Source: Chlamydiales bacterium
GTDB lineage: Bacteria > Chlamydiota > Chlamydiia > Chlamydiales > JBDQID01
Direction: 5' to 3'
Assembly: GCA_047611865.1 (NCBI GenBank)
Contig: JBLFWS010000033.1
Location: 1 to 24,837, forward strand
DNA length: 24,837 bases
Part shown: positions 1,909-24,837 of the stretch, piece after piece
Layout of the letters: every line of letters begins with the position of its first letter
How positions within the stretch are numbered: the first letter of the stretch is position 1
Notes under the pieces: generated by a model
Database searches by the model: none
The model's input: only the letters and a program-made list of their open reading frames with translations
Told to the model about the DNA's origin: nothing
Position numbers and translations under genes: made by a program

Positions 1909-3339
1909 TTACCTATGAGCTTTAAGCTTTTCCTCTTCAATCGCTTTAAAGAGATTTTCTGTCACTTTTGTGGGGTACTCTCCGGAAAAGCAAGCATCAC
2001 AGAAACTTTGACTATCGTAAAGAGCACGAAAATCATGGATTGAAGGGTAGATTAAGTTGTCTACTCCGATATATTCCTGAATTTCTTGATAGTTCATTTT
2101 AGCCGCTATCATCTCACTTTTGCGTGACATGTCTATACCGTAGACACAAGGGTGTTTAATCGGTGGGCAAGAAGAGACGAAGGTAATTTCTTTTGCTCCA
2201 GCATCTCGAAGTTGTTGTACAATATATTTCGACGTGGTGCCTCTGACAATGGAGTCATCGACTACAGCGAGGTGCTTACCCTCGATAACTGATTTAATAG
2301 GGTTAAGCTTACGCTTAACAATGGTCTCTCGCATTTCTTGGGTAGAGGAGATAAAACTTCTTTTTGCGTTGTTATTCTTAACCAGCCCTCTTTTATATGG
2401 AACCCCCAAAGCTTCTGCCAGTCCTTGAGCACAAAAGTATGCAGCTGAGGGTACATCAATGACAATATCGGGCTTGATATTCATTCTTTTGAATTTTTCT
2501 GCAATAGCTTTTCCCATCTTTTCCCTCTCCCCTGCTATTAGGCGACCATGAAGTATGGAGTCTTCTTTGGCAAAGTAGATGTATTCAAAGATACAGAAGG
2601 CTTGTTTGCGTCGATTACAAATTCTGGAGTGAACTTTTTTATTTTTATCGATAAATATCGCTTCACCGGGTTGCAGGTCGTGTACCACATCATATCCCAG
2701 GTGGTCAAAACATGAAGATTCAGATGCAAAGGCGAAAGATACTCCTTTGTCCGTTTCTTTTCTTCCGAGAAGAAGAGGCCTGATGCCATAAGGGTCCATG
2801 AAAGCCAGCATCCCTTGATTGGCTATCAAGGCAACTGTTGCATAGGCACCTTCCACCTGTTTCTGTATAGAACGAACACAATCGAAAATATCATCTACGG
2901 AAAGTTTATGGAGATCTTTCTTTCCAATTTCGATTGAAAGCATCTCAAGAATCAACTCTACATCGTTTGAGGTATTGATATGACGGTGGTGCTCTTCTGA
3001 CAAGGATTTTTTAAGCTGTTCGAAGTTCGTTACGTTCCCGTTATGTACCATAGCTATCCCATAGGGATAATGCACCGTAAAGGGTTGTGCGTCGGCAATA
3101 TCTGCCCTGCCCTGTGTGGAATAACGGATATGCCCAAGCCCTATATTACCTTTAAGAAGTTCAGCATCCTTTTCTGTGAAGACAGTGTTGGCAAGGCCTT
3201 CACCTTTTTTAATGTTAAACGTGTGATTCAGCGTAACTATACCCGCCATATCCTGACCACGATGTTGTAAGGTTGTCAGCCCATAGACCAGTTCTCCAAA
3301 GACATCTTCACAGCCACTAATACCAAAAACGCCGCACAC
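1909..3339 (-). CDS. purF: Amidophosphoribosyltransferase, [4Fe-4S]-type, no propeptide
   Basis: N-terminal nucleophile MCGVFG, LQHRGQD, GHIRYST, HNGN, PRPP loop VVDDSIVRGTT; four cluster-type Cys (FCIFEY, HPCVYG, FCDACF); GTG start overlaps the purN stop (TAGTG). Confidence 0.97.
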   Translation of the reverse strand: MCGVFGISGCEDVFGELVYGLTTLQHRGQDMAGIVTLNHTFNIKKGEGLANTVFTEKDAELLKGNIGLGHIRYSTQGRADIADAQPFTVHYPYGIAMVHNGNVTNFEQLKKSLSEEHHRHINTSNDVELILEMLSIEIGKKDLHKLSVDDIFDCVRSIQKQVEGAYATVALIANQGMLAFMDPYGIRPLLLGRKETDKGVSFAFASESSCFDHLGYDVVHDLQPGEAIFIDKNKKVHSRICNRRKQAFCIFEYIYFAKEDSILHGRLIAGEREKMGKAIAEKFKRMNIKPDIVIDVPSAAYFCAQGLAEALGVPYKRGLVKNNNAKRSFISSTQEMRETIVKRKLNPIKSVIEGKHLAVVDDSIVRGTTSKYIVQQLRDAGAKEITFVSSCPPIKHPCVYGIDMSRKSEMIAAKMNYQEIQEYIGVDNLIYPSIHDFRALYDSQSFCDACFSGEYPTKVTENLFKAIEEEKLKAHR

Positions 3340-3935
3340 TATAGACTCCCTACATTCAATCTAGATTTCGAAAAAAGTTTCTCTAAAACGGTACTGTAAA
3401 TTTGATTTTCCAATTGAAGACCCTTCTGAAGAGTATCTTCCAGGGTTTCCACGCCACGCAAGTCCAAGGCGACTTTTGCGATAACCTCTCCGGTATCTAT
3501 TCCCTCATCAACAAAATGAACGGTAATCTTTGTTTCTTCCAGACCTTGTTCAAAAGCCCACTGGTATCCATCTACACCTTGATGTTCGACGGTATCCGCT
3601 GGATGTATGTTAATGATTTTTTTGGGATAATGAGAAATAAAAGTTCCCGTGAGAATCCGCATAAACCCTGCCAAGACAATATACTCTGCAGAATAAGATG
3701 CTAGACAGATAAGCAGGTCTTCTTCAAATTTCTTTCTCGATTTCCCTTTCGATTCAATGTACTCCACAGGGATGCCCAGGCTCTCGGCAATGTCGAGTCC
3801 TGGAGCATCTCTCCTGTTTGAAATAACAACCGCCACCTCACAAAGACTTTGGAGGGAGCCAGCCAGAGTATTTCTGGCTATGGCTTCCATATTGCTCCCT
3901 CTTCCGGATATAAGGATCGCTATTCTTCTTTTCAT
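3339..3935 (-). CDS. purN: Phosphoribosylglycinamide formyltransferase
   Basis: ISGRGSNMEAI, LAGFMRIL, INIHP, TVHFVDEGIDTG; ATGA overlap with purD. Confidence 0.95.
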   Translation of the reverse strand: MKRRIAILISGRGSNMEAIARNTLAGSLQSLCEVAVVISNRRDAPGLDIAESLGIPVEYIESKGKSRKKFEEDLLICLASYSAEYIVLAGFMRILTGTFISHYPKKIINIHPADTVEHQGVDGYQWAFEQGLEETKITVHFVDEGIDTGEVIAKVALDLRGVETLEDTLQKGLQLENQIYSTVLEKLFSKSRLNVGSL

Positions 3936-5179
3936 ACAGACAGCAAACGTCCTCCGATATCCTTTCTGTAAAAAAGTCCATCGAAGTCAATCTTCGCGCA
4001 TTCTTCATAGATTTTCTGTACCGCTTCTTCCAAGCTTGCACCATGATCTACAAGGTCCAGCACACGACCGCCGTCTGTCAGGAATTTATCGCCTTCCAGC
4101 TTCGTGCCCGCATGAAACACCAAAGTCTCCGGTCGGAGATCCTCTAGGCCTTTAATCTCTTTACCTAGCTCATACTTGCCTGGATATCCACCAGATGCTA
4201 GTACTACCGTCACAAAATATCCTGGCTGATATTCTATTTCAAAATCTCTCAGTGTTCCATGAAAGCATGCCATGATCAAAGGTACGAGGTCACTTTTCAG
4301 TGCTGGGAGTATCACCTGAGCTTCAGGATCTCCAAAGCGCACGTTGTATTCTAATAACTTCGGTCCGGATTTTGTGATCATTACTCCGAAATAAATAATC
4401 CCGCAATAAGAAAGCCCTTCTTTTTTCAGTCCGTCAAGAGTGGGTTGGATGATTTTTTGATTAATGTCCTCTTCCAGGCCCGCACTCCAGAAAGGTACCG
4501 GGCAATAAGCTCCCATCCCCCCGGTGTTGGGACCTTTGTCCCCATCGAAAGCTCGTTTATGATCCTGCGAAGGACTAAGAAGTTTTACCACTTTGCCGTC
4601 TGTGATTCCTACAAGTGAAACCTCTTCTCCCTCGAGTCTCTCTTCTACGATCAATTCTACTTCTTCGCCGTATTGAGATTTAAGAGTTTCAAGAGCCGCA
4701 TCAACTTCTGTCATTTTATAACAGACGTGTACCCCTTTTCCACCAGCCAAGCCATCATATTTGATAACCACGTCTCCAGCACTCTCTTGAGATGCCTTTC
4801 TTGCTTCCGAGATACTTTTGCAGTGCTTATAAACTGCTGTGGCTACGCCGTACTTTTTCATGAAGTCTTTAGACCACACTTTTGAGCTTTCAAGGCGTGC
4901 CGCAGCTGAATTGGGTCCGAAGACATAAATCTCTTCATCTTTAAAGCTGTCGACAATTCCGTTTGCCAGAGGAACTTCTGGTCCCACGACTACCAAGTCT
5001 ATAGTGTTTTCACTACAAAACTTTTTTATCTCGTCGAAATCAGTGATATCTACTCCATAGCTATTCGCAAAACTTGGGTTACCCGGGAGGAGGAAAATCT
5101 CTGACTGTTCATTGGAAAGGCCAAGCTTCCATGTAAGGGCATGTTCTCTACCCCCACCGCCTATTACAACTATCCTCAT
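3932..5179 (-). CDS. purD: Phosphoribosylamine-glycine ligase
   Basis: GGGGREHAL, VVGPEVPL, LESSK, KYDGLAGGKGV, QDHKR, GPNTGGMGAY, LEYNVRFGDPE, GGRVL; ATGA overlap with purC/E. Confidence 0.97.
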   Translation of the reverse strand: MRIVVIGGGGREHALTWKLGLSNEQSEIFLLPGNPSFANSYGVDITDFDEIKKFCSENTIDLVVVGPEVPLANGIVDSFKDEEIYVFGPNSAAARLESSKVWSKDFMKKYGVATAVYKHCKSISEARKASQESAGDVVIKYDGLAGGKGVHVCYKMTEVDAALETLKSQYGEEVELIVEERLEGEEVSLVGITDGKVVKLLSPSQDHKRAFDGDKGPNTGGMGAYCPVPFWSAGLEEDINQKIIQPTLDGLKKEGLSYCGIIYFGVMITKSGPKLLEYNVRFGDPEAQVILPALKSDLVPLIMACFHGTLRDFEIEYQPGYFVTVVLASGGYPGKYELGKEIKGLEDLRPETLVFHAGTKLEGDKFLTDGGRVLDLVDHGASLEEAVQKIYEECAKIDFDGLFYRKDIGGRLLSV

Positions 5180-6579
5180 TGTGCTGCGTACTCCTCTGCT
5201 TTTTCTCTTAGTCTACGGTCTTCTTTATTCAATTCTGCTTTTACTTCCACGATCTCTTCTTGAAAGCGCTTTTTAAGTCTAGCTAAATTGAGACTTCGCA
5301 AAGCCATTTGTGCGGCGGCATCTGCTCCGATACATGTGGCAGCTGGAGCATTTGTCGGCATCATCAATGAAGAATTCAAGTTAATCATCATATCAACCTG
5401 ATCTTTAAAGGGTGGACAATTGATCACCGGAATCGCAAGGTTTGCTGAGAGAGCTCCCCCCAAACCGTTGGACCTTCCCGCTATGGCAATTACAGCCCCT
5501 GGTTCAACGGAGTTATTGTACTCCTCTGCCATAGGGATGATATCCTCACCATTTTTGTGGGCAGATACAACACGAAAATCTATCATCACATCGTATGCTT
5601 CGATTTCTTTTTTAATTTTCATGGCGTGATCTAGATCTCTTCTTGAAGCCATCACTATGGAGATGTAGCCATCTTTAATGATGTTCGAACGCTGCAAATT
5701 CTCAGACATTCTCCTGTGAATGTCTTCAGATTCTGTTCGTGGGCTTTCTCCCAAAAGTGCTTCATAAACCATGATATACCGACGGGAAGCCTCTTCAACA
5801 ACCTCCCTTGGCAAAGATGTCACCTTATCGCTGTTTGGCTGACTAAGGATCCACTGACGAACAAATTCCTTATCCAGGGAATATTCCTTAGACGAGTCCT
5901 TTTCATAGTGTTCCGCGCACCAGAAGCGTGAAGAGTCTGGAGTGTGTATCTCGTCAATCAGAATAAGTTTTCCATCGAGGAGACCAAACTCATATTTAGT
6001 ATCTACGAGGATAAGATTCTTTGAAGAACATAGTTCGTAACCGAAAGAAAAAAGTTTTGAGCTTACTGATACCATTTCCTCGTAATGCTCTTTACTTACC
6101 AAGCCACTAGCTACAATTTCTTCAGGAGTAATAGCTACGTCAACCACATCTTTTGTTGTGGGAGTAATGATGGGTTCCGGAAAAGGGTCGTTTCTTTGCA
6201 ATCCATCAGGAAGTGTTACCCCGGAAAAGCACCTATTGCCTTTCGAGTATTCGCGCCATATGGATCCTGTGAGATACTTTCGAACGATCATTTCCACGCG
6301 GATTGGCTCAGCTTCTCTTACTAGAGAAATATTCGGGTCTATAACTTCAAGGAGGTGGTTATCAATAATATGCCGTGTCTTATTAAGCCATGCACTTGCC
6401 AGCCCATTAAGAACTGCACCTTTATGAGGAATAGTATTTTTCATGATCCTGTCGAAACAGGAAACTCTGTCCGTCACAACGATCAATCTACTCTGATCAT
6501 CAACACGAAGGCTCTCCCTGACTTTACCACTATGGATTTTCTTCAGTTGAGGAGTCGAAAATTGTTTTATCGTATTCAT
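5176..6579 (-). CDS. purC: SAICAR synthetase (PurC) fused to a C-terminal class II-like AIR carboxylase (PurE)
   Basis: First ~300 aa: SGKVRE, TDRVSCFD, LVDTKYEFG, DEIHTPDSSRFW, LDKEFVR. C-terminal ~160 aa: VVSAHK, IAGRSNGLGG, PVINCPP. GAGGA RBS upstream. Confidence 0.92.
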   Translation of the reverse strand: MNTIKQFSTPQLKKIHSGKVRESLRVDDQSRLIVVTDRVSCFDRIMKNTIPHKGAVLNGLASAWLNKTRHIIDNHLLEVIDPNISLVREAEPIRVEMIVRKYLTGSIWREYSKGNRCFSGVTLPDGLQRNDPFPEPIITPTTKDVVDVAITPEEIVASGLVSKEHYEEMVSVSSKLFSFGYELCSSKNLILVDTKYEFGLLDGKLILIDEIHTPDSSRFWCAEHYEKDSSKEYSLDKEFVRQWILSQPNSDKVTSLPREVVEEASRRYIMVYEALLGESPRTESEDIHRRMSENLQRSNIIKDGYISIVMASRRDLDHAMKIKKEIEAYDVMIDFRVVSAHKNGEDIIPMAEEYNNSVEPGAVIAIAGRSNGLGGALSANLAIPVINCPPFKDQVDMMINLNSSLMMPTNAPAATCIGADAAAQMALRSLNLARLKKRFQEEIVEVKAELNKEDRRLREKAEEYAAQ

Positions 6580-6588
6580 GTTTTCCTC

Positions 6589-8193
6589 TTAATGTTTAAA
6601 ATGTCTTAAGCCTGTCATTACCATAGATATGCCACGTCTGTCGCATTCTGCTACTACTGCATCATCGCGGATGGATCCACCCGGCTGAAGAATAGATTTG
6701 ATACCATAATCCCCACAAACTTCCACGCTATCCGGGAAAGGGAAAAACGCCTCAGAAACCAATAAAGCTTGTCCCAATTCCTTTTTAATATAGGCTTCGA
6801 GATCCTCTGGCTTCCCAATGAACTCTTGTGACAAGTTCTCTCTACATTTTGCTACTGCCAACGACACTGACGTAAGGCGGTTGGGCTGTCCTGCTCCCAT
6901 CCCCAGCAATTGTAGCGTGCCTCCAGACTGTTGACGTACTACAACAATGGCGTTAGACTTCACCTGACGGACAGACTTGAGTCCGAACTCCATGAGCTCT
7001 CTGCTACAAGACTCTGCTTTCGTCTGTGTCACGCAGGTCAAGTCTTTAAATAATTCTTCGTCATTGTCCTGAAGGAGAAGAGAGCCTTTAAAATAGCGAA
7101 GTTCTCTAGTTTCCCCTTTCTCTTGCTGCTTAAATTTAACTAGCCGCAGGTTTTTATGTACCCGAAGTTTTTCCAACGCTTTTGGAGTAAATTCTGGTGC
7201 TACAATCACCTCGATAAATTTCCTCTGGCTTCTGTCTGGGTTAGATAGTTGGAAAAAGTCTACCGTATCTTCTTTTACTGCTTCATTAAAAGAAATTACC
7301 GATCCAAAGGCTGAAACAGGATCTCCTTGCCACGCCAACGCCAACGCCTCTGCCTGATCGTTACTTTCACTCAATCCACAGGGAGTATTATGTTTAATTA
7401 CGGCACATGCTGATTTCTGAAGATCTCTAAGTGCATCTATCGCACTGTTGATATCCATCAGGTTGTTAAAGGAGAGCTGCTTTCCGTGTAGAACATCCAT
7501 GTCATAAAGAGAGTTTTCTGCGTTCTTTTCTTTATAAAAAAAGGCTTTTTGGTGAGAGTTCTCTCCATATCGCAAAGGGACTCCCTCGGTAAAGGCTAGC
7601 CTTACTGAGTTCATTTCGCTTTCTCTGTCCATCGCTACAGCGATTGCAGCATCGTAGTCAGCCGTATAGTTAAAAGCTTTTCGCATCAGTTGTTTACGCG
7701 TCTTTTTACTTAGCTCTCCATTATTACTATCTAGTTCTTCGATAATAGTAGAGTAATCTTTAGGATCTGTTACAACAGCTACATGGGCAAAGTTTTTCGC
7801 TGCGGAACGAATCATAGTCGGCCCTCCGATATCGATGTTCTCAATCAAACAATCGAAATCGGCATTCTGCTTGTTAACCTTTTCAAAGGGGTAGCAGTTA
7901 CAAACCACAAGATCAATAGGTTCTATCCCAAATTTCTCTGCTTCTTCTGCATCTTTTTCTCTGTCGAAAAGTATGGCGGAAGATGTTTGAAAAGATAGAG
8001 TTTTGACCCTGCCTCCAAAAACTTCTGGATTCTTTGTTACTGTACTAATATCCCGTACTTGAACGCCCCCTTCCTTTAGAACACGCAGGGTACCTCCTGT
8101 AGAGATTATGTCACATCCAAGCCTTTGCAAAGTTTCTGCAAAAAGCACAATATCTGTTTTATCGCTTACACTAATGAGGGCTCTTTTGACCAT
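6589..8193 (-). CDS. purH: Bifunctional AICAR transformylase / IMP cyclohydrolase
   Basis: RALISVSDK, STGGT, GGRVKTL, ENIDIGGPTMIRSAAKN, LRYGENSHQ, KHNTPCG, GAGQPNR, QPGGSIRD, RHFKH. Confidence 0.97.
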   Translation of the reverse strand: MVKRALISVSDKTDIVLFAETLQRLGCDIISTGGTLRVLKEGGVQVRDISTVTKNPEVFGGRVKTLSFQTSSAILFDREKDAEEAEKFGIEPIDLVVCNCYPFEKVNKQNADFDCLIENIDIGGPTMIRSAAKNFAHVAVVTDPKDYSTIIEELDSNNGELSKKTRKQLMRKAFNYTADYDAAIAVAMDRESEMNSVRLAFTEGVPLRYGENSHQKAFFYKEKNAENSLYDMDVLHGKQLSFNNLMDINSAIDALRDLQKSACAVIKHNTPCGLSESNDQAEALALAWQGDPVSAFGSVISFNEAVKEDTVDFFQLSNPDRSQRKFIEVIVAPEFTPKALEKLRVHKNLRLVKFKQQEKGETRELRYFKGSLLLQDNDEELFKDLTCVTQTKAESCSRELMEFGLKSVRQVKSNAIVVVRQQSGGTLQLLGMGAGQPNRLTSVSLAVAKCRENLSQEFIGKPEDLEAYIKKELGQALLVSEAFFPFPDSVEVCGDYGIKSILQPGGSIRDDAVVAECDRRGISMVMTGLRHFKH

Positions 8194-9020
8194 TCGACTT
8201 TCCGTTTTTTAAGAAACTGAACCATATTCATAAAAAGCTGCAACCCTTCTCCATCCTGAGGATATTCCGGATTATTATGCAGTATCTGCCCCCATGCGGG
8301 GTGGTTATATATCGAGAGAAAGGCTTCTGGGTGAGGCATCATCCCAATTACTTGACCAGTCGTATTGCAAAGTCCTGCGCAATTCATAAAGGATCCGTTT
8401 GGATTCTGGGGATACTCATCTGTAGAGACGCCTCCCTTATCGCAGTACTCCATACAGATCAAACCCTTTTGGATAATTTCTCTGGCTACTTCAGGATCCT
8501 TTACGACGAGTTTTCCTTCAGCATGTCTTATTGGCAAGTCAATAACTCGACTTCTTCCCAAGATTTTATTGGCTGGTCCGTCTTTTATTTTACAACGAAC
8601 CCATCGATCTTCAAACTTACCCGAATCATTTCCAAAGAGAGAAATCTCTTGTTCGAATTGTAAGTCGAGTCCAGGAAGAAGCCCCAGAGACACCAGAGTT
8701 TGGAAACCATTGCATATCCCGAGGATGTATTTCCCCTTATCCAAGTATTCGTGTAGTTGATCGAAAAAAAGTTTTCCGGAGGGCAGCTTTCTATAGCGCA
8801 ATAAATTTGCCAACACTCGGCCAGCACCTAAATCATCTCCGAAGGAAAAGCCTCCGGGAAAGGCGATGATATCGTAATCAAAGATCGACTTTTCTTCTGA
8901 AAAGATATCTTTAAGATGTACTATTTCGGCTTCAGCTCCTGAAAGAGTAAATGCTGCTTGCGTTTCCTCTTCGCAGTTGATTCCAAAACCAGTTAGTACA
9001 AGGGCACGAACATTTTCCAT
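8166..9020 (-). CDS. purQ: FGAM synthase glutaminase subunit
   Basis: GFGINCEEE, FPGGFSFGDDL, catalytic GICNGFQ and MMPHPE; start placed at ATG 9020 (TAATG overlap with the purL stop, AAGGA RBS) rather than 9044. Confidence 0.95.
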   Translation of the reverse strand: MENVRALVLTGFGINCEEETQAAFTLSGAEAEIVHLKDIFSEEKSIFDYDIIAFPGGFSFGDDLGAGRVLANLLRYRKLPSGKLFFDQLHEYLDKGKYILGICNGFQTLVSLGLLPGLDLQFEQEISLFGNDSGKFEDRWVRCKIKDGPANKILGRSRVIDLPIRHAEGKLVVKDPEVAREIIQKGLICMEYCDKGGVSTDEYPQNPNGSFMNCAGLCNTTGQVIGMMPHPEAFLSIYNHPAWGQILHNNPEYPQDGEGLQLFMNMVQFLKKRKVEWSKEPSLV

Positions 9021-12013
9021 TATATCCTTAGGCCTCCTCGCCAAGCTTCCAATATGCGGTCAACCTCAAGGTCCACCCATTCTTTCCCATTTTGAGTGAT
9101 GAGCATCCGTGGCTCTTCTGTCACTCTCCCTAAATACTGATAGTGCCCCTGCATCAATTCTTCAAACACTCCACATAGTTCCGGCTTTACGGATACAACG
9201 AAACGTGAATGAGACTCTGAAAACAGTTGTATGCGAGCGTCTTCCTCTCCCAAAGCTACATTTGCTCCGAGATCTCCACCAAAGGCCGATTCTGCCAAAG
9301 CCACACTCAAGCCACCATCTGATAGGTCGTGACAAGATGACAAGAGCCTCTTTTGATGGGCTGTATGCACCTTCCTGTAGAGAGCAATGGCCTCCTCTTT
9401 CCGAACAACGGGAACATTTGCTCCAAGCAGGCCAAAGAGATGATAAAACTCCGAGCCTCCCAGTTCGTCATACGTCTTTCCAAGAAGGTATATCGCATCT
9501 CCTGCAGCTTTGAATTCTGTTGTTGTCGCTGTACGGATGTCGTCAATTTGTGAAACCATAGAATAAAGGATGGTCGGAGGGATGGATACTTTCACCTTTC
9601 CGTCTCGAAAATCATTCTTCATGCTATCTTTTCCCGAAGTCATAGGAACGTTATATGCCGTTGCCATATCGTAGAGACCGTCACACATCCGGACGAGCTG
9701 TGCCAATTTGTATTTGCCATCAGGATTCGTTTCTGGATCATATACAGAATCAGGTACGCAGAAGTTATCGTTAACTGACCAAAAAGGGCTACTAGCGGCA
9801 TCGAGATCTGGTAGATCACCTCCAACAGATATAACCTGACGCACAGCTTCATCAAAGGCTCCTGTGGACATATGATAGGCATCGATATCACCGTAACGTG
9901 GGATAATTCCGTTAGAAACGATCAGTCCTTTCCATGAGTCGAAATCCAGTCTCATGACAGCTGCATCTTGAGGAGCATTGCCATTTTTTCCCATTAGGGG
10001 CTTAACCACTGTTTTCCCTTTCACTTCATGGTCGTAACGTCGGATCACCGACTCCTTTGAGCAAATGTTGTAAGAAGCCATCAATTGCAGCAAGAGGCCG
10101 TTATAGTCATCCTTAGGAGGAAGTACCGGTTCTTTCAAATCAGGCCGCTTCCACTCTGCCACTAGATGTTTCCGTGGTACACCATTATGAAGAAAATCTA
10201 AATCGAGATGCGCCACCATCTTGTCGTGATAGAGGACATCCAGGGATCCTTTAGATGTGAAAATACCTACTTCTGACAATTCTACAGCAAAACCCTGTGC
10301 TAGCATATGAAGCTCTTGTAGATCTTCTTTTTTTACTACCAGAGTCATCCGCTCTTGTGATTCGGAAATAAAGATTTCCCAAGGCTGTAGCCCAGAATAT
10401 TTTAGAGGTACCTTTTCCAGGTAAACTTCTGCCCCATTAGAAAACTCAGCCATCTCTCCAATAGATGAGGAGAGTCCTCCTGCACCGTTATCTGTGCAAG
10501 TCTTTACCAGTCCTGTTTCACAGGCTACAGTCAAAAAATCAGCTAGGAGTTTCTGCGTCATTGGACTACCGATCTGAACAACAGTCTGTGGAGTGTCCGC
10601 ATCAACATAGGAAGAGGATAAAGTAGCCCCATGAATGCCATCTTTCCCTACACGCCCCCCAGCCATTACAATAATATCACCACTGTCTACCGGTTTATGC
10701 CAGGATTCTTTGCCATCCATGTATTTAGGCATGATAGAACCCGTGCCACAAAACACTAGAGGCTTTCCACAGTATCGTTCATCAAAAACAATCGACCCGT
10801 TAACTGTGGGAACACCGGATTTATTTCCGCCATCCATGATCCCCTCTACCACCCCTTTTAAAACTCTAGAGGGAGGGAGCTGTCCTTTCATCAACTTTTT
10901 ACTGTAGGTCGGTTCCGCAAAACAAAGAACGTTTGTATTAAACAGAAGCTTGGCTCCACCGATTCCAGTACCTAGTGCGTCGCGATTATTCCCGAGTATC
11001 CCGGTTATTGCACCGCCGTATGGATCTAGTGCCGAAGGGGTATTATGTGTTTCCACCTTCCAAATAAAAAGCCGGCTATTGTCTATTTTCACAACGCCGG
11101 CATTATCCGCAAAGACCTTCACTAGCCAGTGGTGGCCAGATTTTTTTAGTCGTGACTCAATTATCCGAGTAGATTCTTTAATCTTGCTGTCGAAAAGTGA
11201 AGACACTGTCCGGATTTGCCCCGTATCAAGGTCTCGATATTCGATTATAGCACTCATTTCTTTGTGCTTGCAGTGCTCCGACCAAGTCTGGGCAAGTATC
11301 TCTATCTCACAATCTGTAGGTTCTTTAGGTAGACCTAAGGATTCCCTTTTCTTTTTGCTATCATCAGAACCAAAGTATGCCTGAATTGCCTTCATCTCTA
11401 CGAGATTGAGGCAAAGGTGTCTTTTTTTGGAAATCAAGAGAAGTTCTTCGTCGGAAACCTGAATATTCACAGAATCCGTGTGAGCTCTCCCCTCAGTTTG
11501 GCCAATGGGAACCGTGTGCACTTCCCCATTCCAGCTTCCATATTCAAAATGATGAATAAGAGGGTTACCGATACTTAAAGCAATACGATCAAGATCCTTG
11601 TCTTCCAATGCATTTTCTATGAAAAAGATCTCTTGGGTAAATACACTTTGTTCCTCCATTTCAAAAGGATCATCCATAAAGTCGCTAAGAGCTCTTTGTG
11701 CGGATAATCCTTCATCATCAGTAACTCCTGGTCTTTTTGCTATAAGAATATAAGACTTAAAGAGTGGGTTATGAAACCACTTGTTTACATAGGCATCGTG
11801 TGTCACGGGATCTTTTAAAGCTTTGTGTGCAAAGCTTTCTACGACGCCTTGATTAGGAGGGTTTATAATCTGAAAGATTTTCCCTGATTTAATACTGCCA
11901 GTATTCAGACCTAAAAACTTTTTCGACTTTTCTGCAACAATATTTGCAGCTCCGTCAACCATGTTATCTTTAGGTAACAGCTGGATATGAGAATGTTCTT
12001 GAGTGCTCGTCAC
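9020..12013 (-). CDS. purL: FGAM synthase PurL, ~1000-aa form with PurS-like N-terminal region
   Basis: QTWSEHCKH, DNAGVV, KVETHNTPS, GAITG, DGIHGAT, DNGAGGL, SESQERM, YDHEV, SGKDSM, HDLSDGG, LFSES; GTG start with GAGGGG RBS; no C-terminal glutaminase domain. Confidence 0.95.
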   Translation of the reverse strand: MTSTQEHSHIQLLPKDNMVDGAANIVAEKSKKFLGLNTGSIKSGKIFQIINPPNQGVVESFAHKALKDPVTHDAYVNKWFHNPLFKSYILIAKRPGVTDDEGLSAQRALSDFMDDPFEMEEQSVFTQEIFFIENALEDKDLDRIALSIGNPLIHHFEYGSWNGEVHTVPIGQTEGRAHTDSVNIQVSDEELLLISKKRHLCLNLVEMKAIQAYFGSDDSKKKRESLGLPKEPTDCEIEILAQTWSEHCKHKEMSAIIEYRDLDTGQIRTVSSLFDSKIKESTRIIESRLKKSGHHWLVKVFADNAGVVKIDNSRLFIWKVETHNTPSALDPYGGAITGILGNNRDALGTGIGGAKLLFNTNVLCFAEPTYSKKLMKGQLPPSRVLKGVVEGIMDGGNKSGVPTVNGSIVFDERYCGKPLVFCGTGSIMPKYMDGKESWHKPVDSGDIIVMAGGRVGKDGIHGATLSSSYVDADTPQTVVQIGSPMTQKLLADFLTVACETGLVKTCTDNGAGGLSSSIGEMAEFSNGAEVYLEKVPLKYSGLQPWEIFISESQERMTLVVKKEDLQELHMLAQGFAVELSEVGIFTSKGSLDVLYHDKMVAHLDLDFLHNGVPRKHLVAEWKRPDLKEPVLPPKDDYNGLLLQLMASYNICSKESVIRRYDHEVKGKTVVKPLMGKNGNAPQDAAVMRLDFDSWKGLIVSNGIIPRYGDIDAYHMSTGAFDEAVRQVISVGGDLPDLDAASSPFWSVNDNFCVPDSVYDPETNPDGKYKLAQLVRMCDGLYDMATAYNVPMTSGKDSMKNDFRDGKVKVSIPPTILYSMVSQIDDIRTATTTEFKAAGDAIYLLGKTYDELGGSEFYHLFGLLGANVPVVRKEEAIALYRKVHTAHQKRLLSSCHDLSDGGLSVALAESAFGGDLGANVALGEEDARIQLFSESHSRFVVSVKPELCGVFEELMQGHYQYLGRVTEEPRMLITQNGKEWVDLEVDRILEAWRGGLRI

Positions 12014-12037
12014 AACCCCTCTTAAAATAATGCCTTG

Positions 12038-13129
12038 TTAATGTACTTCATAAATAAGAGTCGTGGGTTTAACACTCTTACTATGCAAAACGATCGTCTC
12101 ATCTGCTGTCACAACACCGGCAACTCGACCTTGGTATTGATTCATGCGAATGATATCTAAAGCTCTCTCTTCATCTCCACTTTCTACGATCACTAACATG
12201 GCGTTACCCATATTCCACAATTCGTAAACTTGTTCTTCGTCAATATTTCCAAGCTCCTGAAGCTCCGTCATAAACGAATGAGGTTCGAATAGATTGTTAA
12301 GCTCTGCTCCTACTTTATTTTTCCGCAACATACGAGAAAGATTTCCTGCGATCCCGCCTCCTGTCACGTGCACTGTGCCATGAATATCCACATCTTCTGC
12401 ATGTAGCTTCATGATGGCTGGTGAGCATATAAGCGACGGGATAAGAAGGATTTGCCCCCAAGGAATTCCTGAGTGACTAATCTCTTCATGCCACTTGTCT
12501 CCGAAGGCTGCCTCTAGAATCTTCCGGGCCATGGTAAAGCCGTTGCTCCGAAAGCCGAGGCTTTTGATAGCTATTATGCTATCTCCTGGCTTTATGGTAG
12601 AACCGTCGATAGGATTCTTATTCTTTGCTAATGCGCCAATACCTGTTGCGCACCAGTTAAAGTGCATCCCCGACCCGTAACCAGAAATACGGCTACCTAA
12701 TTCGGCGATTTCTCCACCTGTTACGGCTATTGAAGCTACATTAGAAGCTTCATAAAGACCTTCCATCAAGGAATCTACCACCTTTTCATCAAGGTAGTCT
12801 ACATCTAGAATATTGGAAAAGTTCACCGGCTCTGCACCAATGCATGCCAAGTCGTCCACAACCATGGAGACAAGATCGAATCCCAAGGAGTTATATATGC
12901 CTGTTCTTTCAGCGACTTCTATTTTAGTTCCTATACCATCAGAAGCGATAGCAAGACGTAAGTCACCATAATCGAGAACATTGGCATATGAGCCCTTGAG
13001 TCTTGTGTCCGGCATTCCGATACGGTGCCGGCGATTCGGGAAGGTTTTCTGGGCCCATTCAAATGCTATTTTCGAGCATTTGTCACCCAGATGAATATCT
13101 ACCCCAGACTCTTTCACATCAAGCATCAA
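12038..13129 (-). CDS. purM: AIR synthetase (FGAM cyclo-ligase)
   Basis: SGVDI, DGIGTK, GAEP, GGEIAE, GFRSNGFT, HVTGGG, WNMG; start may be ATG 13126. Confidence 0.93.
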   Translation of the reverse strand: MMLDVKESGVDIHLGDKCSKIAFEWAQKTFPNRRHRIGMPDTRLKGSYANVLDYGDLRLAIASDGIGTKIEVAERTGIYNSLGFDLVSMVVDDLACIGAEPVNFSNILDVDYLDEKVVDSLMEGLYEASNVASIAVTGGEIAELGSRISGYGSGMHFNWCATGIGALAKNKNPIDGSTIKPGDSIIAIKSLGFRSNGFTMARKILEAAFGDKWHEEISHSGIPWGQILLIPSLICSPAIMKLHAEDVDIHGTVHVTGGGIAGNLSRMLRKNKVGAELNNLFEPHSFMTELQELGNIDEEQVYELWNMGNAMLVIVESGDEERALDIIRMNQYQGRVAGVVTADETIVLHSKSVKPTTLIYEVH

Positions 13130-14894: not shown

Positions 14895-14899
14895 CGACA

Positions 14900-15293: not shown

Positions 15294-15339
15294 TGCGCCT
15301 TTGCCATTTCGAAAATTTAAATCGAAATATTGAGGCGCA
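15294..15339. terminator. Imperfect long hairpin between convergent genes
   Basis: Outer stem TGCGCCT (15294-15300) / AGGCGCA (15333-15339); inner stem ATTTCGA (15306-15312) / TCGAAAT (15322-15328); no clear U-tract. Confidence 0.45.
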
Positions 15340-15375
15340 TGCTTACATTCACAATCTCTCCTTATGATCAAAGCT

Positions 15376-17611: not shown

Positions 17612-19051
17612 ATGACTAAAAATTACCAATCCCCCCTTGGCATCCGCTATGCCAGCGAGGAAATGAGCGCTCTTTTTTCTTCTCAAAACAAGCATGCTAC
17701 CTGGAGGCGTATGTGGATTGCTCTGGCACAAGCTGAAATGGAGCTAGGACTGCCTATAACAGAGGAACAAATTGCTGAACTCACCGAGAACGTTGACAAT
17801 ATAGACTTTGACAAAGCCAATGAGTATGAAAAGCAGCTCAAACATGATGTGATGGCCCATATCCATGCATATGGAGATCAGTGCCCCAAAGCCCGTCCTA
17901 TCATCCATCTGGGAGCGACCTCTTGCCTGATTACCGACAATAGCGACGTTATTATCCTCCGTGATGCTTTACACATCCTCCAAAAAAAACTTGTCACTGT
18001 AATAAAAAAGCTCTCAGATACAGCCAAAAAATATCAGAACCTTCCTTGCTTGAGCTTTACACACTTTCAGACAGCCCAACCCACAACAGTGGGAAAAAGA
18101 ATGTGTCTTTGGCTTCAGGATTTTCTGTTGGATTTAGAAGATCTTGAATTTCGCCTTAAAAAACTGCGCCTCTTAGGAATAAAAGGAGCTACGGGCACTC
18201 AGGCCTCCTTTTTAAATTTATTCGAAGGAGACCATGAAAAGGTTCGAAAACTTGAGGCTATAATTTGCCAACGCCTGGGTTTTGAAAAGCCCTTCCCTGT
18301 TACTGGACAGACTTATTCCAGAAAGCAAGACGTACAAATTCTTCAAGTCCTCTCCGGCATTGCCACGACTGCTCACAAAATGGCAACAGACCTTCGCCTT
18401 CTGGCTCACATGAAAGAAATCGAAGAGCCTTTTTCCGAAAAGCAAATTGGTTCTTCTGCTATGCCCTACAAGCGCAACCCCATGCAAAGTGAACGCATCT
18501 GCTCTATTGCCCGCTTTGTCATCTCCCTATCAGAAAACCCCACCTACACCGCTGCCACACAATGGTTCGAGAGAACACTCGACGATTCTGCCAACAGGCG
18601 CTTGTGCATTCCCGAATCCTTCCTCGCTGTAGATTCTATTCTCCGCCTTCTCATAAATATTTCCGGAGATATGGTCGTATACCCCAAAGTAATTGAGAAA
18701 AATTTAAAAAATGAGATGCCCTTTCTTGCCACGGAAAACATCCTCATGGAAAGTGTCAGAAAAGGTGCCGATCGCCAGAACATACACGAATTAATTCGTC
18801 AGCACAGCATAACCGTTGGCAAAAGAATAAAAGAAGAAGGCCTCGATAACGATCTTATAGCCCGAATTGCCGAAGATAAAAACATCCCGCTAAGTGAAGA
18901 AGAGCTGGATAATTGTCTGGAAGCTCGCCGCTACATTGGTAGAGCACCTGAGCAGGTAGAAGAATTCATGCTTAATGAAATTGCCGACGTAATGGAAAGA
19001 TACAGGGAAGTCGATATAGAAAAAGAAGCACTCGTGACGATCAACAATTAA
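17612..19051 (+). CDS. purB: Adenylosuccinate lyase (long, ADSL-like subtype)
   Basis: YQSPLGIRYAS, KHDVMAH, IHLGATS, FTHFQTAQPTTVGKR, KGATGT, GSSAMPYKRNP, QWFERTLDDSANRR; GAGGT RBS. Confidence 0.97.
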   Translation: MTKNYQSPLGIRYASEEMSALFSSQNKHATWRRMWIALAQAEMELGLPITEEQIAELTENVDNIDFDKANEYEKQLKHDVMAHIHAYGDQCPKARPIIHLGATSCLITDNSDVIILRDALHILQKKLVTVIKKLSDTAKKYQNLPCLSFTHFQTAQPTTVGKRMCLWLQDFLLDLEDLEFRLKKLRLLGIKGATGTQASFLNLFEGDHEKVRKLEAIICQRLGFEKPFPVTGQTYSRKQDVQILQVLSGIATTAHKMATDLRLLAHMKEIEEPFSEKQIGSSAMPYKRNPMQSERICSIARFVISLSENPTYTAATQWFERTLDDSANRRLCIPESFLAVDSILRLLINISGDMVVYPKVIEKNLKNEMPFLATENILMESVRKGADRQNIHELIRQHSITVGKRIKEEGLDNDLIARIAEDKNIPLSEEELDNCLEARRYIGRAPEQVEEFMLNEIADVMERYREVDIEKEALVTINN

Positions 19052-19065: not shown

Positions 19066-19944
19066 GTGATTTACATGGGAGATAGAAATATACAGCTACT
19101 TAAAATTTCGTTCTGCTTTAATGTTCTTTTGACCTCCCTTAGTCTTTGTGCAGCAGATATCGTAAGTAGCGATGAAAACTATATCGGTTCAATCAAAATC
19201 TATAATACGGGTATTAAAGAAGATCCTGTTTCCGGAGGAAAGATCGGAAAGGGTGTACAGTCGCTAAATTCGAGCTACTGGATTAAAGATTTGGGGTGCT
19301 TTATAGCAAAAAACCTCCCCATACTAAAACATCACCTCCACTATGCTTACAAAGCAGCTCAGGAGGAAAAAGGCATCGATTCCACCTATTTCTGCAACCA
19401 GGCCAATCAACTGTTTTGCAAAGCCGAAAACGAAGGCTTACAAAGTAAAAAAGCTCGCGATTGTTTTATGATGGCATCATGGCTCGCTATGGCTGCAGCT
19501 GAAGTAGATGACTACAATTACAGCAAATACAGTAAAGAGGAAAGAGAGGTAAACAAGGAAGCCTTCTACCAATGTTATTTTAGTGCCGTCGACTACCCCG
19601 AAAACGAATTCCCTGCTGAAAAAATGATGGGGATATTCTTTGCCCCTCCTTCACGCATTGATATGATTCCACATGTAGCTCTTGAGAGGCTAGGACTGCA
19701 CAATGAACTCTGTGCCATAAAATTCGCAGACCCCACACATTGGAAACGCGAGGGGTTTCCCATCAGCAAAAGAATCTCAAGTTTGAAACGACATTTTGAT
19801 GCTGTCCATGCAAAAAAAAGCGACGAAGATCATGTAGCTCACCTCATCTGGAATTTTATGGCCATATACCATGTTCTCACGGTTCATCCAGAACTCAATG
19901 ATCTGACAAATTACGAAGTCTTAAGGACCCTGCCAAAGGTATAG
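19066..19944 (+). CDS. Hypothetical protein with possible signal peptide
   Basis: 292-aa ORF starting 14 nt after purB; N-terminal hydrophobic stretch (ISFCFNVLLTSLSLCA-AD); no family recognised; start may be ATG 19075. Confidence 0.65.
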   Translation: MIYMGDRNIQLLKISFCFNVLLTSLSLCAADIVSSDENYIGSIKIYNTGIKEDPVSGGKIGKGVQSLNSSYWIKDLGCFIAKNLPILKHHLHYAYKAAQEEKGIDSTYFCNQANQLFCKAENEGLQSKKARDCFMMASWLAMAAAEVDDYNYSKYSKEEREVNKEAFYQCYFSAVDYPENEFPAEKMMGIFFAPPSRIDMIPHVALERLGLHNELCAIKFADPTHWKREGFPISKRISSLKRHFDAVHAKKSDEDHVAHLIWNFMAIYHVLTVHPELNDLTNYEVLRTLPKV

Positions 19945-21984: not shown

Positions 21985-23340
21985 TTAACAGGAAATCGGC
22001 CAATCTGAATCGAGCACGATTGTCTGATCCCGAGCAGGACCTACAGAAATCAAAGCAACAGGAACCTCGCAAAGTTCAGCAATCTTCTGAACATACAAGC
22101 GAGCATTTTCCGGAAGGTCTTCATAGTTTTTAACGTTTTCTGTTGAAGTCATCCACCCATCTATTTCTTCATAAACCGGTGTCACGTCATCAAGGCTTGT
22201 AGCCATTCCTGGAACGTACTTATAAGTTTCCCCACGATAAAGATATTCGGTACAGATCTTTATTTTGGGTAGGGTATCTAAAATATCGAGTTTCATCAAA
22301 GCAAGGGAATCCGCTCCATTCATCTTCAAAGAAGACCTGGTTAAAACTCCATCAAACCAACCCACTCTTCTTACTCTTCCGGTAGTCGTTCCTACTTCCC
22401 TTCCTTTTTTTACATCGAAGAACATCTGATCTTCAGGAAGTTCTGTAGGCATAGGGCCTCTTCCGACTCTAGTAATATAAGCTTTTACAACAGCCAGGGT
22501 ATGCTTGATACGAGTAGGTCCAACTCCTGAACCTGTACAAATCCCTCCAGACAATGTGCAGGAAGATGTCACATAAGGGACAGTTCCGTATGTATTGTCG
22601 AGTAATGCACCTTGTGCCCCCTCAAACAAAACAGCTTTACCATTAGAGATATCGTCATTGATTTGCCACTCGACATCACCTGAAACAAAGGACCTAAGTT
22701 CTTCAGCGTAGGCACGGTATTCCGCATGGATTTCTTCAAAATCCATAGGCTCTTCACCGTACAGTTTTGTATGCCTTTCGTTGATAAGCTTAAGGTGTCT
22801 TGACAAGAGATCTCTGAAATGATCAGCATCCATAAGGTCGTTAATGCGAATACCTACCCGGTGGGCCTTATCTGCGTAACACGGACCGATCCCCCGTTTC
22901 GTCGTTCCAACGATATCCTTCCCCTTCCTATCTTCTATTAGAACGTCTTCGTGTCTATGATAAGGCATAATCACATTCGCATAAGGCGAGATCCATAACC
23001 TCCCACGAACTGTAATACCTCTTTTTTCTAGACCATGAATCTCCTCGAGTAAGACTCCGGGGTCAACCACGACTCCACCACCGAGGTAACATTGGCAATG
23101 CCCCTGTAAGATTCCCGACGGAACAAGGTGAAGCTTGTATTCTTCATCCCCTATGATCACTGTATGGCCTGCGTTGTTTCCCCCTTGAGAGCGGACAATC
23201 GTGTCAGCACCCTTGGCAAGAAAATCAATAACTTTTCCTTTTCCTTCATCACCCCACTGTGCACCAATTACGATCATACTTACGCAATTTTGAGAATGGG
23301 ACTGCTTTGGGTGAGCCGCTGTCATCAGAGGCATATTCAT
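21985..23340 (-). CDS. purA: Adenylosuccinate synthetase
   Basis: GAQWGDEGKGK, QGGNNAGHTV, LHLVPSG, GTTKRGIGP, FEGAQG, PYVTSS, GTTTGRVRRVGWFD, KLDILD, SVGP; AGGAGAG RBS. Confidence 0.97.
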   Translation of the reverse strand: MNMPLMTAAHPKQSHSQNCVSMIVIGAQWGDEGKGKVIDFLAKGADTIVRSQGGNNAGHTVIIGDEEYKLHLVPSGILQGHCQCYLGGGVVVDPGVLLEEIHGLEKRGITVRGRLWISPYANVIMPYHRHEDVLIEDRKGKDIVGTTKRGIGPCYADKAHRVGIRINDLMDADHFRDLLSRHLKLINERHTKLYGEEPMDFEEIHAEYRAYAEELRSFVSGDVEWQINDDISNGKAVLFEGAQGALLDNTYGTVPYVTSSCTLSGGICTGSGVGPTRIKHTLAVVKAYITRVGRGPMPTELPEDQMFFDVKKGREVGTTTGRVRRVGWFDGVLTRSSLKMNGADSLALMKLDILDTLPKIKICTEYLYRGETYKYVPGMATSLDDVTPVYEEIDGWMTSTENVKNYEDLPENARLYVQKIAELCEVPVALISVGPARDQTIVLDSDWPISC

Positions 23341-23468
23341 AAATCTCTCCTGAATATGAGATTGAAAATCGTTGGTATTTGTTAAAAAACTTCTCGAACA
23401 CCGCTTGAGGATACTATTCGATCATCAGATTCCTAACCAGAAAAAACCCTGACAAAAGGCAGCAAATA

Positions 23469-23497
23469 TTGCAGCGTATTCCCAAAACCATTAGAGT
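23469..23497 (+). promoter_or_regulatory. sigma70-type promoter for guaB
   Basis: TTGCAG-N17-TAGAGT, ending 72 nt upstream of ATG 23570. Confidence 0.5.
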
Positions 23498-23569
23498 ATC
23501 CCTAACCTTAAAATCCCCTTATCTTTTAGAGCATTAAACCAGCTCTTCGTAAACCTCAGGAGGTCTTAC

Positions 23570-24837
23570 ATGAAAAATACGGTAATTACTCCCGGCGAAA
23601 CCGCTCATACCCAAAAAAATGAATTCAATGAGCTTTCCGCTATATCCGATGGCCTCTCTGGCGAAGAGCTTTTCACCAGAGGTGTCAGCTACAGCTATGA
23701 TGATTTTATCATTCTTCCCGGGCATATTGATTTTACTGTCGACGATGTATCCATAGAAACAAATTTTTCTCGAAATATTCGCTTAAAGACCCCTTTTGTC
23801 AGTTCTCCTATGGACACCGTAACAGAAACCCAGATGGCTATCTCCATGGCTCTTATGGGAGGAATAGGAATCCTTCACTATAATAACTCCATTGAAGAGC
23901 AAGTGAAGATGGTCCGCACCGTTAAACGCTTTAAAAATGGTTTTATCCTCAATCCGATCGTCCTCTCCCCTTCACATTGCCTAAGAGATTTAGATGAAGT
24001 AAAAAGAAAGCACGGTTTTTCCGGCATCCCCATCACCGAGGACGGCCATCTCGGAAGTAAGCTCGTGGGAATCATAACGAAAACAGATGTGGACTTCGAA
24101 GAAAACCGTGACCTGCCCGTTTCCAACTTCATGACTACTAAAATCTCCGTCGCCTCCCAGTCTACCACACTAACAGAGGCCTACAAGTTGTTGAAAAGCA
24201 GCAAGAAATCTCTCCTCCCCATTGTCAATGATGCCCATGAGCTTGTGGCTCTCATCTCACGAAAAGACTTAAAGACCAACAAAGGCTTTCCCCTCGCCTC
24301 ATTGAATCCCAACACCCGCCAACTCCTTGTAGGAGCAGCCGTAGGGACCAGAGAAATTGACAAAGAGCGTGTAGATGCCTTAGTTGAAGCAGGTGTTGAC
24401 GCCATTGTTATAGACTCTTCCCAGGGTGATTCTACCTTCCAATACCAGATGATTGACCATATTAAAAAACACCACCCCACCATTGATGTTATCGGTGGCA
24501 ATGTCGTCTCTGTTTCTCAGGCCTTGCATCTCATCGAAGCTGGAGTTGACGGTTTACGAGTAGGCATGGGTGTGGGTTCCATTTGTATCACTCAAGAAGT
24601 TATGGCTGTGGGTAGAGCTCAGGCTACCGCCGTCTATCAGGTTGCCAAATATGCCCGCCAGCGAGGAATCCCTGTCATCGCTGACGGTGGCTTACGCAAT
24701 CCAGGAAATCTCAACAAAGCCCTCTCTTTAGGAGCAAACACTGTAATGATGGGGTCTATGTTAGCCGGAACTGTCGAGACGCCTGGTGAATATTATTACA
24801 GTGATGGCCAAAGAGTGAAACGCTATAGAGGGATGGG
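23570..24837 (+). CDS. guaB: IMP dehydrogenase, eukaryote-type, with CBS pair (3' end beyond the window)
   Basis: Not in the ORF track; hand-translated and open to the window end: [78 protein letters not shown] (Cys339)..ADGG..YRGMG; AGGAGGT RBS at 23558-23564. Confidence 0.96.

Follow-up and report, generated by a model that had tools for sequence, protein, structure and literature searches.

The guaB gene and its product

The window, by which we mean the whole stretch of 24,837 nucleotides that was analysed, is a complete contig (C33; JBLFWS010000033.1) of a Chlamydiales genome bin (GCA_047611865.1; 3.59 Mb in 272 contigs, an estimated 95.5% complete and 2.5% contaminated). It holds a cluster of purine biosynthesis genes and, at its right-hand end on the plus strand, codons 1-422 of 518 of guaB (23570..24837), the gene for an inosine monophosphate (IMP) dehydrogenase (IMPDH) of eukaryotic sequence type. 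The frame is open from 23570 to 24835, 422 codons without a stop, and runs off the window, its 3' end being cut by the contig end. A full-length form of 518 residues from other assemblies (P0001; three member sequences on two contigs, the longest of 25,652 b) is 100% identical over the 422 window residues, and from it we read the flap Gln447 and the Arg-Tyr pair, both of which lie 3' of the window end. guaB stands head to head with purA (21985..23340, minus strand; PF00709, 5.1e-164), an adenylosuccinate synthetase gene of the ordinary bacterial type whose ranking against PDB is led by chains that we take to be bacterial, such as 1ade. Between the two genes is a divergent intergenic region of 229 bp (23341..23569), and a Shine-Dalgarno-like AGGAGG (23558..23563, plus strand) is found 6 nt before the guaB ATG at 23570. 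An earlier reading of this DNA, made without database searches (the sequence-only reading), had credited guaB with both a bacterial ribosome-binding site and a bacterial promoter; the former is there, but the interval 23300-23620 contains no sigma-70-like promoter (0 matches against 0.9 expected) and no terminator-like site.

Sequence comparison confirms that the window guaB encodes an IMP dehydrogenase of the eukaryotic type. Its translation matches the Pfam IMPDH family PF00478 at 9.5e-107 and a CBS domain (PF00571, 5.8e-13) at residues 184-234, and P0001 scores 618.8 bits against the NCBIfam equivalog TIGR01302 (cut-off 481.5). The GMP reductase models give P0001 only 113-208 bits, below their cut-offs of 344-675, and it also falls below the cut-off of all the GuaB1 and GuaB3 models. 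No other gene of the genome matches the IMPDH family. The catalytic Cys339 (TGT, 24584..24586, plus strand) lies in the loop GSICITQEV and is invariant in 17/17 sequences of the clade alignment, as is the flap dyad Arg435-Tyr436, read in P0001 beyond the window end. As predicted from these features, the enzyme would oxidise IMP to xanthosine monophosphate (XMP) with NAD+, Cys339 attacking IMP and the Arg435-Tyr436 flap hydrolysing the covalent intermediate; the XMP would then pass to guanosine monophosphate (GMP) synthase, whose gene is on another contig.

The closest proteins of solved structure are human. With phmmer, the window fragment matches human IMPDH1 and IMPDH2 in the PDB sequences at 500.4 and 484.9 bits, and P0001, over its residues 26-517, matches them at 606.6 and 582 bits (PDB 7RFE, 1JCN, 1B3O). 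Next for the fragment come the chains 4af0, 4z87, 5mcp and 6rpu at 455-460 bits; of these, 4z87, 5mcp and 6rpu are closest to the fungal protein P0122 and share their sequence with 5TC3, an entry for the IMPDH of Ashbya gossypii (AgIMPDH). This fungal enzyme (4Z87, 5TC3, 5MCP, 6RPU), which scores 550 bits to P0001, is of the same type and has many residues of its second nucleotide site and pocket in common with the query, as we shall call the guaB product. All of the remaining PDB chains, which we take as bacterial although organism names are absent from the match table, score 307.9 bits or less, and the IMPDH of Pseudomonas aeruginosa (4DQW) scores 283.7. P0001 and human IMPDH share the GSICITQEV cysteine loop, Arg at human position 322, Gln at 441, the RYF flap dyad, Arg and Phe at 253 and 282 and the C-terminal tail ...EKRT..AQ..G.VHSLHSY; P0001 differs in having about 25 additional N-terminal residues, and in being the product of a bacterial gene that has a Shine-Dalgarno site and belongs to a purine cluster. 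Among named eukaryotes the query is 57-58% identical to its best matches (Chrysophaeum 58%, Mycoemilia 57%) and 49% identical to Olea, while the proteins of Vampirovibrionales are 60-65% identical to it. The ordinary GuaB enzymes (chlamydial L061-L070, P. aeruginosa 4DQW) catalyse the same reaction with the same layout of barrel and CBS pair, but those of chlamydiae, often encoded near purine genes, are only 42-46% identical to the query (384-421 bits); ordinary GuaB also has Glu both at the Q441 position and in the RIEK motif, and a long branch separates it from the query in every tree. All six peptide strings quoted in the sequence-only reading are present in the guaB translation, and its view that they are eukaryotic IMPDH signatures rather than those of ordinary GuaB agrees with the bit scores, the residues and the phylogeny.

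The residues linked to mycophenolate sensitivity are likewise of the eukaryotic kind. The Arg before VGMG, already picked out in the sequence-only reading as bearing on mycophenolate sensitivity, is Arg330 (CGA, 24557..24559, plus strand) and aligns with Arg322 of human IMPDH2; the full-length form in addition has Gln447 at the position of human Q441, and Arg261 and Phe290 of the query correspond to human positions 253 and 282. Every one of the 49 rows in the eukaryote-type clade described below has Arg and Gln at positions 322 and 441, as against Lys and Glu in 4/4 tabulated non-chlamydial ordinary GuaBs and Arg and Glu in 4/4 chlamydial ones. Arg322 is said, in the work of Hedstrom, to have a role in mycophenolate selectivity. 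According to PMC6336804, the two IMPDH classes differ at their mycophenolate contact in having Gln or Glu. Since Arg330, Gln447, Arg261 and Phe290 are all eukaryotic determinants situated in the catalytic domain, we predict that the query enzyme binds its cofactor in the eukaryotic manner and is sensitive to mycophenolic acid. Drugs of the mycophenolate class, which leave ordinary bacteria unharmed, would then be expected to act on bacteria of this kind.

The regulatory domain

The Bateman (CBS-pair) module of the query extends over approximately residues 118-252 (23921..24325, plus strand; PF00571) and aligns throughout with the human and Ashbya modules. To compare individual positions we transferred the Ashbya numbering (118-245) by aligning the fungal P0122 to PDB 6RPU and then tabulated the columns. 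The Ashbya residues that bind three guanosine diphosphate (GDP) molecules are listed by Buey 2015 (PMC4660370), where, according to a figure legend, the Gly in KKGK "defines eukaryotic IMPDHs". In the relevant sections of the same paper this Gly touches the GDP alpha-phosphate, the Glu of the corresponding prokaryotic RIEK is a Mg-ATP contact strictly conserved in prokaryotic IMPDHs, and each of the substitutions R167E, F145A, N200K and R226P abolishes the inhibition of AgIMPDH by guanosine triphosphate (GTP) and GDP.

In the query the motif reads KKSL (residues 212-215, AAG AAA TCT CTC; 24203..24214, plus strand), which replaces both the eukaryotic KKGK and the bacterial RIEK. The Gly that defines eukaryotic IMPDHs is Ser in the query and in all 14 members of the clade to which it belongs in our trees (the chlamydial clade), and the RIEK Glu, present in 4/4 tabulated ordinary GuaBs, is Ser214. 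Tyr205 (24182..24184, plus strand) stands at the position of Ashbya Asn200 (human Asn198), the guanine-specific contact of the non-canonical GDP site. In Ashbya numbering, the query has changed Gly209 to Ser, Lys210 to Leu, Asn200 to Tyr, Lys240 to Leu and Lys245 to Arg, along with Lys231 to Thr, Arg167 to Thr and Asp186 to Lys; relative to human IMPDH, KKSL stands for KKGK, Tyr for Asn198, Leu for Lys238 and Thr for Lys229. Only Asn118 is kept of the trio said to be responsible for guanine specificity in Ashbya (Asn118, Asn200, Lys240), the equivalents of Arg167 and of Gly209/Lys210 being altered as well. The third, non-canonical guanine-nucleotide site is thus incomplete in the query, which retains Asn118, Gly119, Leu196 and Leu229 and has changed Asn200, Lys240 and Lys245.

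These changes are largely a property of the clade. We compared it with 15 non-plant eukaryotic rows, 10 of Vampirovibrionia and six of Armatimonadota/Spirochaetota. Gly209 is kept in 14/15, 10/10 and 6/6 of these, respectively, and is Ser in 14/14 of the chlamydial clade; Lys210 is kept in all three groups and is Leu or Ile in 14/14, so that 30/31 of the comparison rows have the Gly-Lys of KKGK. Asn200 and Lys245 are also kept in every one of the comparison rows; the former is lost from 13/14 members of the chlamydial clade and none of the 14 has Lys at the latter. Two other positions are more variable: Lys240 (13/15, 10/10 and 6/6) is still Lys in 9/14 of the clade, and Lys231 (15/15, 10/10 and 2/6) is not Lys in 12/14. 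The bacterial rows of Vampirovibrionia and Armatimonadota/Spirochaetota therefore keep KKGK, Asn200, Lys240 and Lys245 in 16/16 cases, which the query clade does not. A metagenome scan, which gave 546 confirmed relatives of which 80 were kept, tells the same story: all 79 informative loci have [KR][KRV]GK, unlike the KKSL of the query (KKGK in 74/79; KRGK, RKGK or KVGK in 5/79; KKSL in 0/79), and 77/79 keep Asn200.

The query would thus join a catalytic core of eukaryotic type to a Bateman module whose GTP/GDP-sensing residues are altered. Because the Bateman residues of eukaryotic GTP/GDP sensing have been replaced, we infer that the three-site inhibition by GTP and GDP is absent or altered in the enzymes of the chlamydial clade, although some nucleotide binding by the query module is likely. 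The suggestion in the sequence-only reading that CBS allostery might be eukaryote-like fares poorly here, the equivalents of the KKGK Gly and Lys, of Asn200, of Lys240 and of Arg167 all being missing from the query. What appears to be new in this locus is therefore the regulatory domain of the chlamydial clade, judged from its residues to be a separate variant that matches neither published footprint.

Distribution, phylogeny and origin

Within the phylum the eukaryote type is rare. Among 400 chlamydial genomes scored for IMPDH (one more was not scored), it is present in four, those of the query, G397, G189 and G279, the latter three with proteins 62-64% identical to the query; in G189, purB and purF are 4-6 kb away from the gene, and in G279 it adjoins guaA. 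Ordinary full-length GuaB (42-46% identity) is found in 10/400, and 0/400 have both full-length types together. One genus (g4; L076-L086, genomes of 1.0-1.3 Mb) has IMPDH relatives of about 366 residues that match only residues ~250-512 of the query and are without the CBS pair; in that of G009 the frame contains two TAG stop codons.

The type is widespread beyond the phylum. Among the best 120 of 7,999 scored protein matches, the label is Vampirovibrio, Vampirovibrionales or Melainabacteria for seven, Rhabdochlamydiaceae, Armatimonadota and Coleofasciculaceae occur as labels once each, and six matches come from eukaryotic transcriptome sets; some of these 120 are on contigs of up to 2.87 Mb. 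With a profile built from nine eukaryotic sequences, Vampirovibrionales proteins score as high as eukaryotic ones, and the ESM Atlas matches are mixed clusters of bacterial and eukaryotic IMPDHs. A single-protein search of genome contigs gave 56 loci, 55 of them ordinary or short IMPDH relatives at 35-43% identity (some of which served as the tree outgroup) and just one, the Spirochaetales L002 (52%), of eukaryote type. The IMPDHs of Vampirovibrionales, Armatimonadota and Spirochaetota (for example P0045 from Vampirovibrio chlorellavorus, P0112 and L002), 52-65% identical to the query, are of the same eukaryote type in bacterial hosts, but they form clades separate from that of the query. Eukaryote-type IMPDH is consequently already abundant in public bacterial sequence data, and the caveat of the sequence-only reading, that a large bacterial clade of this type would reduce the novelty, does apply; the window feature is a further phylum and a regulatory variant of a known enzyme type. 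We found no paper on eukaryote-type IMPDH in chlamydiae or Vampirovibrio, with the proviso that subscription journals were poorly covered and that the supplements of Buey 2015 and of bioRxiv 10.64898/2026.01.19.700455 (Figure S10) may show bacterial members.

For the phylogeny, rows were hand-picked from the matches, many near-duplicates being left out. We computed a FastTree phylogeny of 145 rows, a quick IQ-TREE one (LG+C20) of 89 rows, a careful tree of 61 rows and 516 columns, a quick tree of 64 rows with 13 more Viridiplantae, and a further tree of the catalytic domain alone, from which the Bateman columns (~residues 118-252) were dropped. The first row sets had seven named eukaryotes (Chrysophaeum, Mycoemilia, Olea, Dictyostelium, Tieghemostelium, Mucochytrium and Phaeomonas); the other eukaryotic rows came from EukProt and MMETSP, with animal sequences not among them. 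A search with representatives at 50% identity, which reduced the eukaryote-type clade to a few rows, contributed P0121, P0122 and P0130.

All of these trees recover the split between the eukaryote type and ordinary GuaB. In the careful tree the 49 eukaryote-type rows form a clade apart from the ordinary bacterial and archaeal GuaBs (ultrafast bootstrap, UFBoot, 98 and SH-like approximate likelihood ratio test, SH-aLRT, 94; in this order below). Nesting within ordinary bacterial GuaB, which the sequence-only reading had named as fatal to its case, is therefore not what the query shows. Inside that clade the query pairs with P0002 at 100/100, P0003 is added at 100/99, and a 14-row clade (99/96) unites this trio with P0053/P0069 and with a nine-row group that includes G189, G279 and G397; G189, which belongs to the same order as the genome of the query, encodes a protein identical to P0085, labelled Rhabdochlamydiaceae at NCBI, and this speaks for the chlamydial identity of the query genome. 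The 14-row clade survives removal of the Bateman columns (SH-aLRT 92). In the careful, 64-row and catalytic-only trees, the query nests in none of the sampled eukaryotic lineages. When the 17 eukaryotic rows were held together, the log-likelihood was 4.40 above that of the free search (approximately unbiased test, p-AU 0.62), and the resulting tree, rooted on ordinary GuaB, has the chlamydial clade branching first, the other bacteria next and then the eukaryotes. These results support an old rather than a recent relationship between the chlamydial clade and eukaryotic IMPDH.

A possible link to plants was considered and abandoned. The bryophyte-like P0123 has ILI.SKKSLLP, as does the chlamydial clade, and before the 13 Viridiplantae were added a tree constrained to unite P0123 and Olea with that clade was not rejected (delta lnL 2.65, p-AU 0.35); with these additions the plants group with the other eukaryotes and not with the chlamydial clade. 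KKSL in place of KKGK is in fact seen in several land-plant IMPDHs, those of bryophytes among them (P0123, P0330, P0335, P0342 and P0343), the rows from angiosperms diverge even further (ELEF, KLKY), and green algae and Chara have KK[GN][KR]. We read the KKSL match of plants and the chlamydial clade as convergence; the eukaryotic GTP footprint appears to have been lost within plants too.

The explanation that we favour, with a probability of roughly 0.7, is that guaB encodes the sole IMPDH of this bacterium, that it belongs to an old subclade of the eukaryote type, and that the enzyme would be sensitive to mycophenolate and have eukaryotic GTP sensing either absent or different in form. This distinct subclade includes the IMPDHs of three other chlamydial genomes and, on this explanation, was not a recent pickup from a host; the type may have passed from an early eukaryote to bacteria or the other way round. 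A number of points weigh against this explanation. The last 96 residues of the protein, with the flap Gln and the Arg-Tyr pair, are outside the window and were taken from P0001, whose prefix is identical. Only 4/14 members of the clade are tied to chlamydial genomes, and another, P0036 (on a contig of 4,475 b), is labelled Melainabacteria. The backbone is weak: the 14-row clade is sister to all other eukaryote-type rows at 84/67 in the careful tree, groups with Armatimonadota/Spirochaetota at 89 in the 64-row tree and sits in a polytomy in the catalytic-only tree. The G+C content of guaB is 0.463 against 0.415 for the genome, and its tetranucleotide correlation (0.661) is near the 5th percentile (0.636) of same-sized random pieces. 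Finally, the loss of GTP allostery is judged from 8-10 contact residues only, and the query does keep the equivalents of Arg226, Asp228, Asn118, Gly119, Phe145 and Leu196.

Two of the alternatives would make the gene a newcomer to this genome or no part of it at all. That the purA-guaB junction is chimeric, or that the contig was mis-binned from another organism, is scarcely credible, even though this metagenome-assembled genome (MAG) is in 272 contigs with 2.5% estimated contamination and guaB is cut by the end of its contig. Three public runs, each assembled separately, gave contigs that span 22600-24837, and with it the junction that the sequence-only reading had wished to see supported, with 0 differences, no joint and no loose end (X1 is of 25,087 b; X2, of 25,503 b, extends 686 b beyond the window end). 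These runs are possibly the MAG's own source, which weakens the point, and they attest to a consistent assembly rather than an independent sample. Nevertheless, C33 is typical of the genome in composition (tetranucleotide correlation 0.9775, rank 54 of 123 contigs of at least 10 kb), a lineage-restricted gene for a 626-aa protein on it has full-length homologues in other chlamydial genomes, and this IMPDH subclade recurs in three further chlamydial genomes, in two of which it lies beside purine genes. It is hardly more probable that the chlamydia acquired guaB recently, from a protist that is or was lately its host; transfer from a protist host had been entertained in the sequence-only reading. 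Chlamydiae do live inside eukaryotes, guaB is eukaryote-like along its full length, its G+C content is raised, and the type is rare in the phylum (4/400). Against this, the nearest named eukaryotes (57-58%) are no closer than Vampirovibrionales (60-65%), the query falls in a 99/96 clade with the IMPDHs of three chlamydial genomes that belong to two other families, it is placed within none of the eukaryotic lineages sampled, a monophyletic eukaryote group without it is not rejected (p-AU 0.62), and the gene has a Shine-Dalgarno site and bacterial neighbours. The other suggestion of that reading, a bacterial sister clade of eukaryotic IMPDH, fits better, although the backbone is weak and transfer may have gone in either direction.

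The chlamydial gene would not be foreign at all if the eukaryote type had arisen in bacteria and been acquired by eukaryotes, a possibility that we consider real but distinctly the less probable course. It is favoured by the order of branching in the best-likelihood tree rooted on GuaB (the chlamydial clade, other bacteria, then monophyletic eukaryotes) and by sequences that branch further out and have Arg and Gln at the drug positions (P0128/P0129/P0139) or Lys and Gln (P0133). Set against it are the 84/67 backbone and the other arrangements in the 64-row and catalytic-only trees, the fact that the type is universal in the sampled eukaryotes and patchy in bacteria, and the risk that long-branch or domain-divergence effects draw the clade to the base. 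More speculative still is the fuller scenario in which eukaryotic IMPDH is a bacterial invention acquired before the last eukaryotic common ancestor, the KKSL clade is its earliest surviving branch and the GTP sensor evolved then or in the immediate donors; if it were true, IMPDH would be one more core metabolic enzyme of eukaryotes from a non-mitochondrial bacterial donor and the chlamydial enzymes would show the state that preceded the GTP sensor. It is, on the other hand, improbable that the query has simply kept the allostery of human and fungal IMPDH, with GTP and GDP binding to the Bateman module, third site included, and inhibiting the enzyme. The overall Bateman fold is retained, as are the equivalents of Asn118, Gly119, Ile121, Phe145, Gly147, Asp168, Thr184, Leu196, Lys208, Arg226, Asp228 and Leu229, and the footprint is complete in 10/10 Vampirovibrionia and 6/6 Armatimonadota/Spirochaetota rows. 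However, the query has changes at Gly209, Lys210, Asn200, Lys240, Lys231, Arg167 and Asp186; in the AgIMPDH results of Buey 2015 (PMC4660370) that concern these sites, R167E and N200K each desensitise the enzyme to GTP/GDP and the KKGK Gly, which is Ser in the query, contacts the GDP alpha-phosphate.

Eukaryotic and bacterial IMPDHs have been treated as two regulatory worlds, with a third GTP site exclusive to eukaryotes, in the pertinent parts of Buey 2015 (PMC4660370) and Fernandez-Justel 2022 (PMC9462843). In the explanation that we favour, the chlamydial clade would add a fourth arrangement, a core of eukaryotic type with a regulatory module of neither world, and its enzymes would constitute a natural experiment on the coupling of catalytic type and allosteric control. 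The clade also bears on the source of eukaryotic IMPDH.

The purine cluster and its neighbours

The sequence-only reading had placed guaB in a bacterial purine cluster, and this description holds. A de novo purine operon on the minus strand (1909..13129; Pfam, and NCBIfam for the fusion) comprises purF, purN, purD, a purC-purE fusion, purH, purQ, purL and purM; purB, for adenylosuccinate lyase, follows on the plus strand (17612..19051; PF00206, PF10397), and then purA. guaA, which that reading proposed to look for downstream of guaB, does exist in the genome, but on a separate 3-kb contig (C184) and not on C33. Together, guaB and the adjacent purine genes would give this uncultured chlamydia a complete route from phosphoribosyl pyrophosphate (PRPP) to adenosine monophosphate (AMP) and GMP, a route that most chlamydiae lack.

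Chlamydiota seldom possess the whole de novo purine pathway. purH, a marker of the pathway, scores above the cut-off in only 27 of the 401 genomes surveyed for it, often a few kb from the IMPDH gene (G044, G285, G334, G014, G189). The portion of Dharamshi 2023 (PMC9816063) dealing with purine genes infers that the last chlamydial ancestor had lost purC, purD and purH. This is thus a rare chlamydial lineage that would be able to make purines de novo, with its GMP branch completed by an IMPDH type present in 4/400 genomes. In the 80 metagenome loci, purA was within 6 kb of the IMPDH gene in 0/80 and guaA in 1/80; the divergent purA-guaB pair was not found elsewhere in this set.

The purine genes have some peculiarities of their own. 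The PurC-PurE fusion (467 aa; 5176-6579, minus strand) has a phosphoribosylaminoimidazole-succinocarboxamide (SAICAR) synthetase followed by an aminoimidazole ribonucleotide (AIR) carboxylase, the domain order of animal PAICS, and its PurE half best matches the PAICS structures 4JA0 and 2H31 (97 and 91 bits). The genome yields no PurK above the cut-off (top score 168 bits, cut-off 318), and a PurK-independent (class II) AIR carboxylase in the fusion would fit this. The formylglycinamidine ribonucleotide (FGAM) synthase is split (8166-12013, minus strand) into a PurL of 997 aa, which has the large form's linker domain, and a glutaminase of 292 aa encoded separately (GATase_5), the two frames overlapping by 25 nt.

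Between purM and purB there is a three-gene signalling insert (13452-17277), consisting of a GAF-adenylate/guanylate cyclase (plus strand), a response regulator (plus) and a HAMP-PAS histidine kinase (minus); judging from these domains, it may link purine synthesis to cyclic-nucleotide signalling. The lineage-restricted protein of 626 aa mentioned above (19983-21863, minus strand), encoded between purB and purA, is hypothetical, with no Pfam or NCBIfam match; its full-length homologues are in the chlamydial genomes G289 (33% identity, 336 bits) and G272 (176 bits), and there are weak matches of ~640 aa in 11 more of the 400 scored. Directly 3' of purB, a gene for a 292-aa protein (19066-19944, plus strand) has no NCBIfam match and a weak one (6.5e-07) to the N-terminal domain of dATP/dGTP diphosphohydrolase.

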